Source: Nanobdellati archaeon
GTDB taxonomy: Archaea; Nanobdellota; Nanobdellia; CSSed11-243R1
Assembly: GCA_027007025.1 (NCBI GenBank)
Contig: JALTFL010000004.1
Coordinates: 4,773 to 68,772 of the forward strand
Reading direction: 5' to 3'
DNA length: 64,000 bases
Notes under the pieces: model-generated
Databases searched by the model: none
Told to the model about the DNA's origin: nothing
Seen by the model: only the letters and a program-made list of their open reading frames with translations
Shown: positions 2,765 to 60,042 of the stretch, in pieces
Position numbering within the stretch: the first letter of the stretch is position 1
Layout: each line of letters begins with the position of its first letter
Position numbers and translations under genes: made by a program

Positions 2765-2898
2765 TCTTTTTCTTAAGAAGAAAAAGCTTAACCAAAAAGA
2801 AATTTTTCTCTTAGTTAGCCCGTGTCCAACGAGGCTTTGTTCGGCACAAGCAACAAAGTCACTCTGTTTTTTCTAAAGAAAAAGTGGGTAGGCAATTA

Positions 2899-3492: not shown

Positions 3493-5127
3493 CTACAGCA
3501 CCTTTTGTTGGGGCATCTGCAAGCAAGATTTCACAAATCCCTTGAAAAGAGGCGACGGACTTTCAAAGCGCGAGTGGAATTCAGGGTGCGCCTGCGTCGC
3601 CACAAAGAATCTCTTGTCCGGCAGCTCAAGAAATTCCATCAACGTCTTGTCAGGAGAAGTTCCTGAGAAAATCAACCCACATTTTTCTAATTGTTCAATA
3701 TACTCAGGATTAACCTCGTATCTGTGCCTGTGTCTTTCGGAAACAAATTCTTCACCGTAAAGCTCGCGGACTTTTGTTCCCTCTTTGAGAACTGCAGGAT
3801 AAGCGCCAAGCCTCATGGTTGCGCCGTACTGTTTGAGCTTGATTAACTCCTTCTGCTCTGGCATGAAGTCTATAACTGGATATGGTGTGTTTGGGTCGTT
3901 CTCTGTCGTGTTTGCGCCGTCCATTCCGCATACGTCACGCGCGAACTCAATTACCGCCATCTGCATGCCATAACAGAGCCCTAGAAACGGAATGTTATTC
4001 TCACGGCAGAATTTTATAGTTTTTATTATCCCTTCCGTTCCGCTCTTGCCGAACCCACCAGGAACAATTATCCCATCATATTTTCTTAAAATATCTATCC
4101 CTTCATCTTCTATTTTTGTTGACTGTATCTGCTCAATAATAGGTTTTACCTTAAGATTTGCTGCTGCATGCTTGATTGCCTCAAGGACAGATATATAAAC
4201 ATCCTTATGTTCAGAGTTGCCGTATGAAACATATTTTCCAACAACCCCTATTTTCACAACCTTATCTGCACCTTTCATGTTATCAACTAAATCTTTCCAT
4301 TTTTGCAAATCCACTTCTTTTGGTTCTAACCCAAACTTCGAAAGGATTTTCCTGCCAAACTTCTGGTCCTTGAAAACAAGAGGAACTTCATAAACAGTTT
4401 CACAATCCGGGTCCTCAATAACATTACCTTTGTCTATAAAACACTGCTTAGAGATTTTCTCCTTGCGCGGGTCGTCCAATCTTCTGTCACTGCGCGTAAT
4501 GATAAAATCCGGAACAATACCCGTCGCCCTTAGTAATGCAGCTGCTTGCTGCGTCGGCTTTGTTTTTAATTCGCCAACATTTTTCAAAAATGGGAGATAA
4601 GTAACAAGAAGGTAAATTGACGGTATCTCCCTGCCAAGCTCTCTCGCGGCATAAAGAAAAACTTCATTTTGAATATCCCCTGTCGTACCACCTATTTCCA
4701 CAAGCACAAAATCATTGTCCTCTTCGACTGCACGTATCCTATCTTTAATCTCATTAATTATATCGGGAATTACCTCAGCGTTCTTTCCGTTGTAACCCAA
4801 CGCTCTTTCTCTGTTTATAACTGAAAGATAAATCTGCCCAGTTGTGATATTATTCCTTTTCGGAAGATTTTTGTTAAGAAATCTCTCATAGTTTCCCAAA
4901 TCCTGGTCAATCTCTCCGCCATCTTCAGTTACCCAAACCTCACCATGTTCTGTGGGGCGCATTGTTCCTGCATCTATGTTAATATAAGGATCGATTTTAA
5001 CTGCTGTAACTTTATACCCATAACTTTGGAGCAATTTACCAATAGAAGATGTGACAATCCCCTTACCAAGCCCAGAAAGAACGCCACCAATTATAAAAAT
5101 AAATTTTGCACCCATGTAGAGCATCAA
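3493..5127 (-). CDS. pyrG: CTP synthase
   Basis: N-terminal FIFIIGGVLSGLGKG synthetase P-loop, C-terminal glutamine amidotransferase region with GLCYGMQ catalytic Cys motif. Confidence 0.9.
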   Translation of the reverse strand: MMLYMGAKFIFIIGGVLSGLGKGIVTSSIGKLLQSYGYKVTAVKIDPYINIDAGTMRPTEHGEVWVTEDGGEIDQDLGNYERFLNKNLPKRNNITTGQIYLSVINRERALGYNGKNAEVIPDIINEIKDRIRAVEEDNDFVLVEIGGTTGDIQNEVFLYAARELGREIPSIYLLVTYLPFLKNVGELKTKPTQQAAALLRATGIVPDFIITRSDRRLDDPRKEKISKQCFIDKGNVIEDPDCETVYEVPLVFKDQKFGRKILSKFGLEPKEVDLQKWKDLVDNMKGADKVVKIGVVGKYVSYGNSEHKDVYISVLEAIKHAAANLKVKPIIEQIQSTKIEDEGIDILRKYDGIIVPGGFGKSGTEGIIKTIKFCRENNIPFLGLCYGMQMAVIEFARDVCGMDGANTTENDPNTPYPVIDFMPEQKELIKLKQYGATMRLGAYPAVLKEGTKVRELYGEEFVSERHRHRYEVNPEYIEQLEKCGLIFSGTSPDKTLMEFLELPDKRFFVATQAHPEFHSRFESPSPLFKGFVKSCLQMPQQKVL

Positions 5128-16180: not shown

Positions 16181-16294
16181 TGGGCCCGGGGGGATTCGAA
16201 CCCCTGGCCTCCTGGTTAAAAGCAACACCTTCAAATCCAATTTTATTAGAATGAATTTGAAACAGGCGCTCTGACCAGGCTGAGCTACGGGCCC
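16181..16294 (-). tRNA. tRNA-Lys (anticodon UUU) with a roughly 39-nt intron at a non-canonical position in the anticodon stem
   Basis: Minus strand reads GGGCCCG-TA-GCTC-AGCCTGGTCA-GAGC-G-CCTG[intron]G-CTTTTAA-CCAGG-AGGCC-AGGGG-TTCGAAT-CCCCC-CGGGCCC-A; acceptor stem 7 bp, canonical D-arm and T-loop; one A:C mismatch at the top of the T-stem. Confidence 0.6.
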
Positions 16295-16380: not shown

Positions 16381-16500
16381 TTTATATACCTTTCTATGCA
16401 CTTTCTCTTTCTTAGAAATAAAGAGAACCTGCGCTAAGAGAAAGAATTTCTTCCGGCAAAACCTTTCTTTGGAAAAGAAAGCTGCAGGAAAGAAAGAAGA
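16381..16500. repeat. Hairpin-repeat region (ttctcttt-cttagaaat-aaagagaa; gaacctgcgctaagagaaag; ctttcttt-ggaa-aagaaag)
   Basis: Inverted repeats with pyrimidine and purine arms; contains the shared 20-nt motif in inverted orientation. Confidence 0.5.
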
Positions 16501-16504
16501 AAAA

Positions 16505-17749: not shown

Positions 17750-17945
17750 ATATCTTGTAATACACTAGAATATATTAAGATTTCCATGACTTCAAAATCA
17801 ATAGAAATCATCTTCGTTTTCTGTTCCTATTCTTCTTCCTGCCGCGGCTCTTCTGTTTTATGATGTCTTTTCTCTTTAACCGCTTTCCTTTCCGCTTTCC
17901 CTTTCTTGATTTTGGCTGAATTGTTTTCATAAAAACACCTAGAGT

Positions 17946-17953
17946 AAAAAAAA
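17946..17953 (-). terminator. Oligo-T (T8) run immediately 3' of tRNA-Asp
   Basis: Eight T on the minus strand two nt after the discriminator base; archaeal-type oligo-T terminator. Confidence 0.4.
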
Positions 17954-17954
17954 G

Positions 17955-18195
17955 CGCCCCGACCGGGACTTTCAAACACTCGCCAAGTTTCTCTCTTAGC
18001 GCAGGTTCTCTCTTTTCAAAGAGAGAAAGTGCTTTTGAACCCGGGTCCCCGGCTTGCTGCACTCCGGAATTTCTTCCGCTGGCGCTTCTTTCTAAGAAGA
18101 GCCGTTCGACAGACCGGGATCCTAGACCAACGTCCAACCACTTTCTTTCCGTGAACTCTTTCTTTGGAAAGAAAGGGTTCCTAGACTATCGGGGC
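17955..18195 (-). tRNA. tRNA-Asp (anticodon GUC) with three introns (D-loop, anticodon loop 37/38, T-loop)
   Basis: Acceptor GCCCCGA/TCGGGGC, discriminator G; exon pieces GTCTAG...TTGGTCTAGGAT-C-CCGGT-CTGTCG[48-nt intron]A-GCCGG-GGAC-CCGGG-TTCAAA[intron]T-CCCGG; introns carry hairpin repeats; D-loop exon boundaries uncertain. Confidence 0.6.
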
Positions 18196-18238
18196 ACTAA
18201 CAAAAATGATGGACTACTCCATTTAAAAAAGTTTTGAG

Positions 18239-18398
18239 TCCCAGCGGCCGGACTTTCGAAGCCCACCCTGAGTTTCTTTCCCTCAAGGCTCTCTTTTTGA
18301 AAGAAAGGCTTGGTCGAACCAGCAACCTCACGGTTTCAACGATGGATTTCTCCACCATACCACTACAGCCGTGCGCTCTACCATTGAGCTACGCTGGG
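18239..18398 (-). tRNA. tRNA-Tyr (anticodon GUA) with two introns (anticodon loop 37/38, about 28 nt; T-loop, about 60 nt)
   Basis: CCCAGCG-TA-GCTC-AATGGTA-GAGC-G-CACGG-CTGTAG[intron]A-CCGTG-AGGTT-GCTGG-TTCGA[intron]..-CCGGC-CGCTGGG-A; C1:G72 and A73 as expected for archaeal tRNA-Tyr; anticodon intron contains a GGTGGA-GAAA-TCCATC tetraloop hairpin. Confidence 0.65.
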
Positions 18399-18457
18399 AC
18401 AAATCATTTAGACATCCGTAGGTTTAAAAGTTTTTCTTAAAATAAAAAAGAAAAAGA

Positions 18458-21732: not shown

Positions 21733-22656
21733 TCACCTGGAGAATTCCTTCCTTAAGATATCAACTGAAAAATATATTAATATTGCCAGCAGAGTTGCCT
21801 TGCAAACTATAAAAAAAGTTGGGATTAAGTTCAAATCAACTTGACGAGGTATATGCCCTAAGGATACATCTATTCCGTTGCCGGATACACAAACTCTTGT
21901 GTACGTAACATTGTTATCATTACCCAAATTCACATACTTTACCCCTTCTTTTTCAAAAACAAAGTCTTTCTCATTTGATGAAATTACAAGAGTGACATTT
22001 TTCTCCCTGAATAAATAATCCAAGAGTTTCCCGTCTGGTGTTTCATACTTACTCTCTGACGGATTTATTATAGGATTATTCATTATTATTACTTTATTTT
22101 TAGCATTATCTGAAAGGGATTTATTCAACCAATTATACTGGTCTATATCAATGCTCCCCAAGCTGTTGTCTAATATAATAAACAATGAATTTGAAGTATT
22201 AAACGAAAAATAAGGATTACCAAAAATCGATTTAAACATTAAATCACTCCCATATGGGCTTTCGCTGCTGCCTATCCCAAAAATAGTAGGAACATCATAT
22301 CTCCTTGCGTTGTGAACAAATTGAGAATACTCTTCGATTATACCTTCGTCTATGAAGTTTCCATCTATCACAACAAATGAGGAATCACCACTTAAATTCA
22401 AAAAATGGTTGAATATATATATATCTCCGTTAATGTTGCCTATTACGGAAAAGCAATAGTTTGAATCATTTTTTATATCACTTATCTGATGATTATTCCA
22501 ATTGTTAGCCGGAGGGATATAACCTATTACAATAATACTCACAAGAATAGCTACAACAAGCACCATCATCCATTTATTTTCCATTTTCAGCAATATTCTA
22601 AATAAGGACACAAATTTAAAAGTTATGAAACTACTAAAAAAATCCTTTCTTTCCAA
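21733..22656 (-). CDS. Hypothetical membrane-anchored protein
   Basis: N-terminal and C-terminal hydrophobic helices, N-x-S/T sequons; no confident family assignment. Confidence 0.45.
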   Translation of the reverse strand: MERKDFFSSFITFKFVSLFRILLKMENKWMMVLVVAILVSIIVIGYIPPANNWNNHQISDIKNDSNYCFSVIGNINGDIYIFNHFLNLSGDSSFVVIDGNFIDEGIIEEYSQFVHNARRYDVPTIFGIGSSESPYGSDLMFKSIFGNPYFSFNTSNSLFIILDNSLGSIDIDQYNWLNKSLSDNAKNKVIIMNNPIINPSESKYETPDGKLLDYLFREKNVTLVISSNEKDFVFEKEGVKYVNLGNDNNVTYTRVCVSGNGIDVSLGHIPRQVDLNLIPTFFIVCKATLLAILIYFSVDILRKEFSR

Positions 22657-22684
22657 GAAAAAGTGTTCGAGTCTTTTTGAAAAA

Positions 22685-22895
22685 GCCCGACAGAAAACTT
22701 TCTCTTAGTGCAGCTTCTCTTTTCTAAAGAGAAGATGCTTCTTTTGGTAAAGCTTTTCCAACACCCTTCTTAGAAAGAAGCATACGGAAGAAACCCCGCT
22801 TTCTTTCTCTTAGCCCATGTTCTCTTTCTTTTAAGAAGGAGAAAAATTTTTTCTTTTCCGGACGCGCTTTTCTTTTTTCTAAAAAGAAAAGGGTG
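22685..22895. repeat. Hairpin-repeat region 3' of tRNA-Pro, with a degenerate tRNA-3'-end-like segment
   Basis: Hairpins cttctctt-ttcta-aagagaag and cttttcttttt-tcta-aaaagaaaag; motif ctcttagtgcagcttctc; minus strand ends GTCGGGCTTTTT, resembling the tRNA-Asp 3' end. Confidence 0.5.
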
Positions 22896-22899
22896 TTAG

Positions 22900-23131
22900 T
22901 GGGGCCGCCGAGATTTGAATTCCCGGACCATGCCAACTTCTTTTCCGTTGACGCTTTTCTTTTAAGAAAAGGGTCACTCGGGACCACGTGCATTCCAGGG
23001 TTTCTTTGGTTGAGCTTTCTTTCCCAAAGAAAGATCACCCCAGGCACGCATCCTAGACCAAGTTGTCTGCTCTTTTCTCCCTCTTTTGGTAGAGCTTTTC
23101 TCGGGAGAAAAGGCCTCTAGACCACGGCCCC
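22900..23131 (-). tRNA. tRNA-Pro (anticodon GGG) with three introns (D-loop, anticodon loop 37/38, T-loop 54/55)
   Basis: Acceptor GGGGCCG/CGGCCCC, discriminator A; GTCTAG...TTGGTCTAGGAT-G-CGTGC-CTGGGG[intron]T-GCACG-TGGTC-CCGAG-T[intron]TCAAAT-CTCGG; introns contain hairpins ctttcttt-ccc-aaagaaag and cttttctc-ggg-agaaaag. Confidence 0.6.
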
Positions 23132-23163
23132 ACAGTTAAATTAAAGAACAAATTATTTTAAAA

Positions 23164-23415
23164 TTATTTTGGAACAACAATTTCAAGATGAGAAGATGTC
23201 CACCGATATAAAATTCCATTTTCGTATACAAAAACTTTATCTTCCATAACCAAGGGATTCTGTCCGTATTTCATTTTGTCTCTAATTAGCCCCATTAAAT
23301 CTGTAGAAATATAATATTCTCCATATATGGGCAGCTCTTTTTTTCTTCCGAAAATATTTACTTCAACATTGCTTCTCTTAGAGAATAAGTCGTCAATTGA
23401 AGAAGTGTTACCCAT
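23164..23415 (-). CDS. Hypothetical protein
   Basis: 83-aa ORF immediately downstream of the helicase gene. Confidence 0.35.
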   Translation of the reverse strand: MGNTSSIDDLFSKRSNVEVNIFGRKKELPIYGEYYISTDLMGLIRDKMKYGQNPLVMEDKVFVYENGILYRWTSSHLEIVVPK

Positions 23416-58681: not shown

Positions 58682-58707
58682 CCCACCTTCTCTTTAGAAA
58701 AGAGAAG

Positions 58708-60042
58708 TTGGACCAAGAGAAATGTGATATGATGAGTGAAAATATTCCATACGATGCAATTGAAAAAAAAGATTCTGAGATTTTCAAGTACTTAAATCTT
58801 GAAGTTGAAAGACAAAAGGAAGTTCTCAACATGATTCCTTCCGAGAATTATGTCTCAAAGGCTGTGCTTGAAGCCAGCGGAAGTATCCTAACAAACAAAT
58901 ACGCTGAAGGTTATCCAGGAAAAAGATATTACCAGGGCATGTCAAATGTCGACGAGATTGAAAAGATTGCAATCGAAAGGGCGAAAAAACTTTTCGGGGC
59001 AGAGCACGCAAATGTCCAGCCATACTCTGGAAGCCCGGCGAACGCGGCAATTTATTACGCTCTTTTGAAACCCGGAGACAAGATAATGGGAATGCGACTC
59101 GACATGGGCGGACACCTTACGCACGGGCACAACGTCAATTTCTCGGCGCGTTTTTACAAGTCAACACCTTATGTTCTCGACAAGGAAACCCAAATGCTTG
59201 ATATGGACGAAATAAGAAAACTTGCAATCAGAGAAAAACCGAAATTGATAATTTCTGGTTATACAGCATATCCGCGAAAAATTCCATTCAAGGAGTTTCA
59301 TGAGATAGCTGAAGAAGTCGGCGCGTATTCAATGGCGGACATTTCCCACATATCTGGATTGATTGTCGGAGGCGTTCATCCTTCACCTTTTCCATTCACG
59401 GATGTTGTCATGACAACAACACACAAGACGCTTAGAGGTCCACGCGGGGCAATTATTCTCTCAAAAAAAGAGGACAGACTCGCGAATGTTGAAGGGCTTG
59501 ACGAAAAGAAGGCAAAAAGGGCAAAGAATCTCGCCTTGAAAATTGACAGGGCTGTTTTTCCCGGACTGCAGGGAGGACCACACATGAACGTAATCGCCGC
59601 GAAGGCAGTAGCCTTTGAGGAGGCAATGACGCCGGAGTTCAAGGATTACGCGAAACAGGTTGTAACAAACGCAAAAGTGCTTGCGGAAACTCTTCTTGAC
59701 AACGGCGTAAAACTTGTTACTGGCGGAACTGACAACCATTTGATTTTAATTGACTTGACACCTATTGGCGTCGGGATTGGAAAGGAAGTCGCTGTCGCCC
59801 TTGAAAACGCGGGCATAGTCGCGAACATGAACACAATTCCATACGACCCGTCAACGCCGTTCAAGCCGTCGGGATTGAGAATCGGGACTCCGCTTTTGAC
59901 AACACGCGGAATGAAAGAGGAAGAAATGCAAATAATCGGCGAGTGGATTTCAAGAATAATCCTCAACAGAAAAGACGCCGCGCTCCAAAAGAAAACAAAA
60001 GAAGAAGTCAAAGCGCTCTGCGAGAAATTTCCTTTTTACTAA
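58708..60042 (+). CDS. glyA: Serine hydroxymethyltransferase
   Basis: PLP-lysine motif TTTHKTLRGPRG. Confidence 0.9.
   Translation: MDQEKCDMMSENIPYDAIEKKDSEIFKYLNLEVERQKEVLNMIPSENYVSKAVLEASGSILTNKYAEGYPGKRYYQGMSNVDEIEKIAIERAKKLFGAEHANVQPYSGSPANAAIYYALLKPGDKIMGMRLDMGGHLTHGHNVNFSARFYKSTPYVLDKETQMLDMDEIRKLAIREKPKLIISGYTAYPRKIPFKEFHEIAEEVGAYSMADISHISGLIVGGVHPSPFPFTDVVMTTTHKTLRGPRGAIILSKKEDRLANVEGLDEKKAKRAKNLALKIDRAVFPGLQGGPHMNVIAAKAVAFEEAMTPEFKDYAKQVVTNAKVLAETLLDNGVKLVTGGTDNHLILIDLTPIGVGIGKEVAVALENAGIVANMNTIPYDPSTPFKPSGLRIGTPLLTTRGMKEEEMQIIGEWISRIILNRKDAALQKKTKEEVKALCEKFPFY

Follow-up and report, generated by a model that had tools for sequence, protein, structure and literature searches.

How can genes of 160 and 241 nucleotides (nt) still yield tRNAs of normal length? 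This question is posed by two adjacent loci, tRNA-Tyr(GUA) and tRNA-Asp(GUC), in a 64,000-nt stretch of archaeal DNA (contig JALTFL010000004.1 of assembly GCA_027007025.1, positions 4,773 to 68,772), which we refer to as the window and number from its first nucleotide. An initial annotation, made from the sequence without database searches, had proposed that both genes are interrupted by several introns, some of them in the T-loop, and that the introns carry a hairpin repeat family specific to this genome. Our analysis indicates that the two loci are very probably functional tRNA genes of a DPANN archaeon, predicted to be spliced at bulge-helix-bulge (BHB) motifs, with introns that stem from a repeat module. 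Four of the five introns are each built around one copy of this module, the exception being the Tyr intron at the canonical position 37/38.

Exons and introns of the tRNA-Tyr and tRNA-Asp genes

The two genes, read on the minus strand, have the following parts, with exons delimited by a BHB search and then by splicing.

18239..18398, minus strand: tRNA-Tyr(GUA) gene, 160 nt, three exons, CCA not encoded
18398-18363, 18334-18313 and 18252-18239, minus strand: Tyr exons
18335..18362, minus strand: Tyr intron 1, 28 nt, canonical position 37/38, without the repeat module
18253..18312, minus strand: Tyr intron 2, 60 nt, T-loop position 59/60, pyrimidine tract of its module from 18308
17955..18195, minus strand: tRNA-Asp(GUC) gene, 241 nt, four exons
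18195-18181, 18129-18107, 18054-18034 and 17968-17955, minus strand: Asp exons
18130..18180, minus strand: Asp intron 1, 51 nt, D-loop position 15/16, module at 18177-18141
18055..18106, minus strand: Asp intron 2, 52 nt, canonical position 37/38, module at 18101-18070
17969..18033, minus strand: Asp intron 3, 65 nt, T-loop position 59/60, module at 18029-17988

The gene lengths, the exact ends and the complementary 7-bp acceptor halves given by the initial annotation were confirmed, the halves being CCCAGCG/CGCTGGG followed by A73 in Tyr and GCCCCGA/TCGGGGC followed by G73 in Asp. The identity features that it had named, G73 for Asp and C1:G72 with A73 for Tyr, are all present. We searched for BHB motifs as two 3-nt bulges with 4 bp between them, cut after the second bulge nucleotide, and verified candidates by splicing them out. 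A strict or relaxed motif was found at all five Tyr and Asp junctions, as the proposed interruption by several introns, including those in the T-loops and in the Asp D-loop, had led one to expect, and the spliced products are canonical. Spliced Tyr is 72 nt long and is called tRNA-Tyr(gta) by ARAGORN, with a full cloverleaf and the T-loop UUCGACU, and spliced Asp is 73 nt long and is called tRNA-Asp(gtc), with a full cloverleaf, a G10.U25 pair and the T-loop UUCAAAU. The lengths proposed for the 37/38 introns held for Tyr (28 nt) and needed correction for Asp, where the BHB search gives 52 nt rather than 48 nt. The removal of roughly 60-70 nt from each T-loop corresponds to the introns of 60 nt in Tyr and 65 nt in Asp, both at 59/60.

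The motifs are described here by the central helix between the bulges (H), the inner helix (h) and the helix h' formed by a stem of the tRNA. The Tyr 59/60 junction is a strict hBHBh' motif: the T-stem (GCTGG/CCGGC) serves as h', four pairs (TTCG/CGAA) make up H between the bulges AC|C and AG|T, and h has 6 bp. At the Tyr 37/38 junction, H is formed by three of four pairs (CTGT/GTTG), with bulges AG|T and AA|A, an h' of 5 bp in the anticodon stem and an h of 3 bp. The Asp 37/38 junction has all four pairs in H (CTGT/GCAG), bulges CG|A and CA|A, an h' of 7 bp in the anticodon stem and an h of 2 bp. At Asp 59/60, a perfect H (TTCA/TGAA) is joined to the T-stem as h' (CCGGG/CCCGG) with bulges AA|A and AG|T, and the form is HBh', with the h helix shifted by one nucleotide. 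The Asp 15/16 junction was read directly as a relaxed hBH motif with H GTCT/GGAC, bulges AG|G and GT|T and no h'; its inner helix h consists of AACC/GGTT plus 10 more bp. Excision of this intron leaves the D-loop AGUGGUCUA, in agreement with an intronless relative (AGUGGUCCA). When the whole precursors were folded without constraints at 70 °C, the minimum free energy (MFE) structures contained the acceptor, D and anticodon stems together with the BHBs of both T-loop introns.

Standard tools passed over both loci. ARAGORN at default settings reported zero tRNAs in the whole 64-kb window; with anticodon-loop introns allowed, it reported nothing at Tyr and Asp and a single gene elsewhere, a tRNA-Lys, which it miscalled as Leu(caa). 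Rfam at the gathering threshold gave no match at Tyr and Asp, its sole tRNA in the window being that at 16181-16294, and a scan at permissive E-values matched only part of Tyr, with a score below the threshold (28.4 bits, positions 7-64 of the model). The ARAGORN check suggested with the initial annotation had a divided outcome: the genomic loci are invisible, while the spliced sequences are recognized as Tyr(gta) and Asp(gtc).

A BHB on its own proves nothing, because such motifs are about equally frequent in shuffled sequence. When outer helices of 4 bp were required and G.U pairs admitted, 136 BHBs were counted in the window against a mean of 115 in block shuffles, and BHB number as a stand-alone statistic was dropped. 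The chance density is about 8e-6 per pair of site and length, and at Tyr and Asp the motifs lie on the exact nucleotides that restore 7-nt T- and anticodon loops. As for the content of the introns, C/D-box guide RNAs were considered and rejected, as a reading of the sequence showed neither RUGAUGA nor CUGA boxes.

The tRNA pair in related genomes

The window has matches in the NCBI assembly GCA_015522785.1 and in a scaffold of 528 kb (ENA ERZ23495180) that derives from a hydrothermal-vent metagenome. Its genes are those of archaeal information processing, encoding RpoH, a split RpoB, RpoA'/A'', L7Ae, NusA, EF-2 and EF-1alpha as well as S12, S7, Nop5, fibrillarin, Nop10, PCNA, RFC, MCM, TBP and the thermosome. 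We assign the host to the DPANN archaea ('Nanoarchaeota') because of the nearest genomes in a scan with RpoB'', which are the following.

L004: 'Nanoarchaeota archaeon' AUK188, RpoB'' identity 89%
L019: 'Nanoarchaeota archaeon' AUK136, RpoB'' identity 83%
L005: a 'Parvarchaeota' metagenome-assembled genome (MAG), RpoB'' identity 65%
Other relatives: 'Woesearchaeota' MAGs, RpoB'' identity 55-61%

In AUK188, AUK136 and L005, Tyr and Asp likewise form a pair upstream of rpoH, in conserved synteny, and the introns of the pair differ among these genomes. In AUK188, Tyr has the same structure as in the window, including the 59/60 intron, and Asp has its third intron at 53/54 (CCGGG|ACACC...CGGGAA|TTCAAAT) rather than at 59/60. 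In AUK136, Tyr has the 37/38 intron only, Asp has the D-loop and 37/38 introns only, and both T-loops are intact (TTCGAAT). The Asp gene of L005 is intronless and matches the predicted mature sequence, with the D-loop AGTGGTCCA. The 37/38 intron of Tyr is also found in AUK188, AUK136 and L005, and the Asp 37/38 intron is 92% identical to its orthologue in AUK188. A tRNA-Pro(GGG) gene of the window, described below, behaves in the same manner: its orthologue has three introns in AUK188 and two in AUK136, where the 37/38 intron is missing and the anticodon loop is intact.

Stem differences among the orthologues are all compensatory, and the cloverleaves are kept in AUK188 and AUK136. Position 4:68 of Tyr is A-U, G-C or C-G and position 27:41 is A-U or U-A across the orthologues, and Asp has compensatory changes at 6:67, 7:66 and 28:44. 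These genes are therefore being maintained and are not decaying. The absence of individual introns in sister genomes that keep the exons, together with the compensatory changes, lends support to the interpretation put forward in the initial annotation.

Architecture of the repeat module

The module that recurs in the introns is about 30-50 nt long and consists of a pyrimidine tract (Y), a loop of 2-6 nt, a purine tract (R1), a spacer and a further purine tract (R2). R1 is the reverse complement of Y, and R2 is the mirror image of R1. One example has Y CCCTTTTCTTTTT, R1 AAAAAAGAAAAG and R2 GGAAAAGAAAAAA. The spacer has 4-8 nt, mostly 7-8, with CTNNACC, CGCGTCC and CCTG[CT]GCT as recurrent forms. 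Except for Tyr 37/38, every intron of Asp, Pro and Tyr (seven out of eight) contains one module; the intron of tRNA-Lys lacks it as well. The initial annotation was right that a repeat family is present, as the window contains 14 modules in which 6-11 perfect Y:R1*R2 triplets follow one another without a break, whereas 30 shuffles contain none. Its description as a simple hairpin gives way to a three-tract mirror architecture, which intergenic copies share.

The mirror relation is seen most clearly in asymmetric tracts, such as Y CCCTTTCTTCCC with R2 GGAAAGAAGGG, and in paralogous modules, where a T-to-C change is mirrored by A-to-G. For symmetric tracts, the MFE choice is Watson-Crick pairing of R2 with Y, an arrangement that we rejected, as the asymmetric R2 tracts are mirror images and not reverse complements. 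In none of the 14 window modules is the mirror register shorter than the direct one. Mirror beats direct by 19 to 2 among 26 modules delimited by hand in three genomes, and by 55 to 17 among 131 distinct metagenome modules. In a permutation anchored on the spacer, reversed R1 scored 0.833 against its own R2 and 0.752 against the R2 of other modules (z=5.8, a value attained in 0 of 2000 permutations), though the modules are related by descent and the p-values of the mirror tests are optimistic. As far as can be judged from the order and symmetry of its tracts, the module is laid out like a class II intrastrand triplex of the BoxC/PIT type.

Turnover and mobility of the introns

Similar introns occupy different positions in different tRNA genes, as four pairs demonstrate.

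Pro D-loop intron of the window and Asp D-loop intron of AUK188: 93% identity
Pro 37/38 intron of AUK188 and Asp D-loop (15/16) intron of AUK136: 89% identity
Tyr 59/60 intron of the window and Pro 53/54 intron of AUK188: 82% identity
Asp 59/60 intron of the window and the intergenic copy at 16398-16446 (plus strand), 1.5 kb away on the other strand: 80% identity

These cross-position identities of 80-93% extend over 48-60 nt (z 14-25 against shuffles), with z 16-25 for the three tRNA-to-tRNA pairs (93%, 89% and 82%), and they include the non-repetitive spacers CTC[TG]ACC, CCTGCGCT and GGTTGCC. The last six or so nucleotides of matched introns differ, complementing the local exon in each case. 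At the orthologous Asp 15/16 site, three different variants are present in three genomes. Because the module is also found between genes and at different positions in the tRNAs of relatives, we regard the module-bearing introns as recent gains from a proliferating repeat family.

Other tRNA genes and their surroundings

All four tRNA genes in the 64-kb window are interrupted, Asp and Pro by three introns each, which is the known maximum, and three of these genes escape both ARAGORN and Rfam at its standard threshold. The two genes besides Tyr and Asp are as follows.

22900..23131, minus strand: tRNA-Pro(GGG) gene, 232 nt; the spliced 76-nt sequence is called tRNA-Pro(ggg)
23116-23063 (54 nt, D-loop), 23037-22993 (45 nt, 37/38) and 22976-22920 (57 nt, 53/54), minus strand: Pro introns, all with the module
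16181..16294, minus strand: tRNA-Lys(UUU) gene, Rfam tRNA match of 49.5 bits; the spliced sequence is called Lys(ttt)
16262-16224, minus strand: Lys intron, 39 nt, non-canonical position 30/31, without the module

The tRNA-Pro gene was missed by every tool and was located by inspecting a cluster of BHB hits. A scan of GC islands for hidden RNA genes did not find it, the islands being mostly coding. The Lys intron has a BHB with H CGCC/GGTG, an h of 10 bp and an h' of 4 bp, and it is kept in AUK188 with compensatory changes in the long helix.

TTTAAA-like boxes end 21-25 nt upstream of the first nucleotide of Tyr, Asp and Pro (18399-18450, 18196-18238 and 23132-23165, minus strand), which suggests a putative promoter for each of these genes and transcripts with a very short leader or none. 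Such transcripts would recall the leaderless transcription of tRNAs reported for Nanoarchaeum. The gap between Tyr and Asp measures 43 nt in the window and contains a T-run and a TTTAAAT box. In AUK136 (L019 8834-8836), A73 of Tyr and G1 of Asp are one nucleotide apart, and the tRNA pair must therefore be co-transcribed there and separated by processing.

Directly after tRNA-Asp lies a 40-codon open reading frame (ORF; 17808-17930, minus strand) for an extremely basic peptide, MKTIQPKSRKGKRKGKRLKRKDIIKQKSRGRKKNRNRKRR, and a similar basic ORF follows Asp in AUK188. It may encode a small protein of ribosomal type. A mechanically called ORF of 109 aa (17808-18137), which overlaps tRNA-Asp, was dismissed as spurious. 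Between the tRNA genes stands a gene of the serpin family (Pfam PF00079; 16505-17749, minus strand), which is kept in AUK188.

Distribution of the module outside tRNA genes

Copies of the module also lie between genes of the window.

2765..2802, plus strand: intergenic module directly after the S7 stop codon, with 8 consecutive perfect triplets
58686..58722, plus strand: intergenic module directly after the MCM stop codon
193..231, plus strand: intergenic module beside the EF-1alpha gene
16398..16501, plus strand: pair of modules in the intergenic DNA that separates the serpin gene from tRNA-Lys; the first is closely paralogous to Asp intron 3
22640..22897, minus strand: four to five modules in tandem just downstream of tRNA-Pro, with a hairpin and a T7 run at the end

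The run at 22640..22897 was considered as a further fragmented tRNA and rejected, as no exons could be assembled on either strand. In a co-occurring strain (L001, ENA scaffold_1, about 4990-5090), the module run is replaced by an unrelated sequence of about 95 nt, which is a strain-level polymorphism. At an intergenic site with two copies in the window, AUK188 has a single degenerate copy and so does not provide a clean empty site. The 17.6 kb of L005 that were read contain no recognized module. Two stretches of non-coding DNA beside modules, at 2803-2898 (plus strand) of the window and at about 5000-5090 of L001, have in common the segment CAA[AT]GTCACTC[TG]G and, behind it, a T/A hairpin; this may be another small repeat or a small RNA.

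The family reaches far beyond this genome, contrary to its initial description as genome-specific: the pattern of one common variant occurs in at least 120 metagenome contigs from many datasets. Its consensus there is AAC-CTTTTCTT-AGAA-AGAAAAG-CTTTACC-AAAAGAA, often adjoined by an inverted copy of the second spacer class. The module-bearing contigs are archaeal, and at least one is far from the lineage of the window. Among 129 listed matches, about 13 in sense and 5 in antisense orientation lie inside reconstructable tRNAs, the remainder being intergenic. An excess of BHB-forming flanks was found around the tRNA-embedded copies only; intergenic copies are equal to shuffled flanks in this respect, and their reading as introns was rejected accordingly.

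Several further arrangements were seen in the metagenome contigs. In contigs L113, L142 and L163, the module is preceded by a repeated unit, ...AGCCCCGGGCAGATTCCCACCAAC. On the opposite strand, tRNAs could be reconstructed that contain the module in antisense orientation, in L113 and L163 as an intron that interrupts the T-loop after nucleotide 58-59; introns thus harbour the module in either orientation. In L093, L096, L125, L133, L159 and many other contigs, a CTTTACC-type module is followed within about 10 nt by an inverted module of the CCTGTGCT type (TTTTTCTTTTAGCACAGGTTTTCTTTTTGTAAAAAAGAAAAAGTGT), and the resulting composite of about 95 nt resembles the inverted pairs of type A and type B in TMECO of E. 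coli.

A role as terminator or promoter was discarded, as no clear bias in the orientation of neighbouring genes was seen (same/same 20, opposite/opposite 21, convergent 13, divergent 5). A viral origin was likewise discarded, two scans of viral contigs having given only chance matches inside coding repeats. No Rfam family matched in 41 kb of module-rich contigs, the module sequence was not found in the literature searched, and neither a target-site duplication nor a terminal repeat was recognized for the family.

Proposed splicing and intron gain

The precursors, of 160 and 241 nt, would fold at each exon-intron junction into a BHB. As known archaeal biology leads us to expect, the endonuclease EndA would cut in the two 3-nt bulges and an RtcB-type ligase would join the exons; RtcB would also circularize the excised introns, and CCA would then be added to the 72- and 73-nt tRNAs. 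Comparisons among the genomes suggest that copies of the module enter tRNA genes at the level of DNA, by recombination between D- or T-arms of similar sequence or by another route of insertion. They would persist in tRNA genes only where their flanks form a BHB and thereby allow splicing. The module itself would contribute a stable, self-contained fold that extends the inner helix of the BHB, and we speculate that this three-tract fold is a selected property of the element.

Alternative explanations

Some observations weigh against functional, spliced genes at Tyr and Asp. Three of the five junctions are relaxed, with Asp 15/16 having no h', Asp 59/60 an offset h and Tyr 37/38 one mismatch in H, and relaxed BHB-like motifs are common by chance. 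The inventory of tRNA genes covers a 64-kb window of a genome of about 0.5 Mb, so that intronless second copies may exist elsewhere, and genes for EndA and RtcB were not found in the window or in the flanks that were read. If the loci were pseudogenes, that is, tRNA genes inactivated by repeat insertion, unspliced and unused, it would come as no surprise that standard finders miss them, that several BHBs are relaxed, and that the inserted family is mostly intergenic, with only about 13 + 5 of the 129 listed matches inside tRNAs. We nevertheless consider this very improbable. The exons are intact down to their identity elements, the stem differences among orthologues are all compensatory, and the insertions are bounded by BHBs exact to the nucleotide, whereas intergenic copies have no BHB excess. 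Moreover, the disrupted genes persist across three diverged genomes (83-89% identity in RpoB'') while introns come and go, and the interruption of four out of four tRNA genes in the window would be unlikely in a genome that still needs translation. It is harder still to credit a misassembly in which repeat-rich metagenomic reads were collapsed or chimerically joined within tRNA genes. The source is indeed a metagenome-assembled genome, and the inserts do belong to a repeat family; however, three further assembled contigs, with at least two samples represented, contain the 560-nt region spanning the locus without any difference from the window except in how long one T-run is, and related variants appear in genomes assembled independently from another vent field.

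The introns themselves could have another origin than the one we favour. Old introns inherited vertically, and alike through convergent selection for stable Y/R hairpins in an A/T-rich thermophile, would account for the Tyr 37/38 intron that all four compared genomes have in common, and some similarity is to be expected between tracts of low complexity. Against this stand the identities of 80-93%, spacers included, that link different positions of different tRNAs, the three Asp 15/16 variants in three genomes, and T-loop introns that are present, absent or shifted (59/60 against 53/54) among close relatives; in the outgroup L005, for its part, Asp is uninterrupted, and 17.6 kb of sequence yielded no module. 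We judge this origin unlikely for the module-bearing introns. Self-splicing introns of group I or II, or the pieces of split or permuted tRNAs, have precedents in the group I introns in tRNA genes of bacteria with reduced genomes (PMC13011429) and in the split tRNAs of Nanoarchaeum (PMC4033280). At 28-65 nt, however, the introns are far short of a ribozyme core (at least about 200 nt), and no Rfam intron family matched even at permissive E-values. Nothing here is split or permuted, because the exons are colinear and contiguous on one strand. Such explanations deserve hardly any weight next to predicted BHB splicing of introns that stem from the repeat module.

A possible triplex-forming origin of the introns

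A more specific hypothesis, which we put forward tentatively and think rather doubtful as it stands, is that the non-canonical introns are domesticated copies of a widespread, A/T-rich archaeal intrastrand-triplex repeat, a counterpart of BoxC/PIT, whose fold is under selection. What is selected would be a triplex of DNA, on one strand or the other, or else a U.A-U triplex of RNA, in which case the complementary strand would form it. Moving at the level of DNA, copies would spread to intergenic sites and to tRNA genes, and would survive in the latter where a BHB forms by chance or evolves. Purine-motif triplexes are described as forming in DNA and not in RNA, and tracts rich in T.A-T as favouring the pyrimidine motif (PMC4666352), which for the modules would mean the complementary strand. 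If the hypothesis were true, it would provide a concrete source element for the gain of archaeal tRNA introns and a first link between triplex-forming repeats and introns. The mirror-repeat architecture also points to a specific and checkable structure, the intrastrand triplex, for an abundant archaeal repeat.

Comparison with known systems

With standard finders, the tRNA counts of DPANN genomes such as this one are too low, and inferences on completeness and codon usage are therefore affected; finders aware of non-canonical introns are needed for such genomes. Incomplete tRNA sets have been noted in DPANN genomes, with unidentified disrupted genes suspected, and variants of EndA in this group have been linked to disrupted tRNA genes (PMC5829648).

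Like the split tRNAs of Nanoarchaeum equitans, the genes of the window belong to a DPANN-type host with a very small genome, and their disruption would be repaired at BHB-like motifs by the splicing endonuclease. Unlike those of N. equitans, their exons are colinear within one gene, and no trans-joining is needed.

Another parallel is found in the Thermoproteales, in which tRNA genes with several introns and 'intron transposition' were reportedly described by Sugahara in 2008 and Fujishima in 2010. In this order, a single tRNA can have as many as three introns, insertion at non-canonical positions is established, and introns that resemble one another occur at different sites (PMC4033280, PMC4090602). 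The window shares with it near-identical introns in different tRNAs and positions and recent lineage-specific gains. It differs in that the Thermoproteales are Crenarchaeota and the host here is a DPANN archaeon, that the intron family also occurs between genes without BHB flanks, and that it has a three-tract mirror architecture. Intron transposition in Thermoproteales has been inferred without an identified source element or mechanism, and intron gain has stayed an open question. The lineage studied here offers one element both as intergenic copies and as introns at 15/16, 37/38, 53/54 and 59/60, and the differences in introns between genomes with 83-89% RpoB'' identity, together with the BHB flanks of the tRNA-embedded copies, make the question of intron gain testable.

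Within the DPANN archaea, ARMAN-2 (Ca. Micrarchaeum) has a 59/60 intron in tRNA-Cys and introns at 53/54 and 59/60 in tRNA-Pro(GGG), and its T-loop introns and relaxed hBH motifs are cleaved by an epsilon2 endonuclease (PMC3239211). The similarities to the window comprise a DPANN host, the 53/54 and 59/60 sites, strict along with relaxed hBH motifs, and tRNA-Pro(GGG) among the targets. The host here is of a different DPANN lineage, and the portion of PMC3239211 consulted describes no repeat-family relationship for the ARMAN-2 introns.

Class II intrastrand triplex repeats of bacteria were reportedly described by Hoyne and Maher in 2000. The bacterial BoxC, PIT and TMECO repeats lie between genes in either orientation, frequently as pairs, and mark loci that are unstable (PMC4666352). 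The order of tracts, with Y, loop, complementary R, loop and mirror R, is the same in the module as in the bacterial repeats (Holder 2015, PMC4666352), as are a length of 30-50 nt, multiple copies, an intergenic location in either orientation, inverted pairs of two subtypes and sites that vary among strains. The bacterial motif given there is G/C-rich (CCCTCNCCC...GGGNGAGGG...GGGNGAGGG), while the module is A/T-rich and archaeal, with the conserved spacer classes CTNNACC and CCTG[CT]GCT. Part of the window modules are, in addition, predicted to be spliceable tRNA introns, and the main text of PMC4666352 does not mention 'tRNA'. Multi-intron tRNAs and T-loop introns were thus already known, from Thermoproteales and ARMAN-2; what is new are introns from a widespread and mostly intergenic repeat, the triplex-type mirror architecture of that repeat, and a series of gain, loss and relocation of introns in close relatives.

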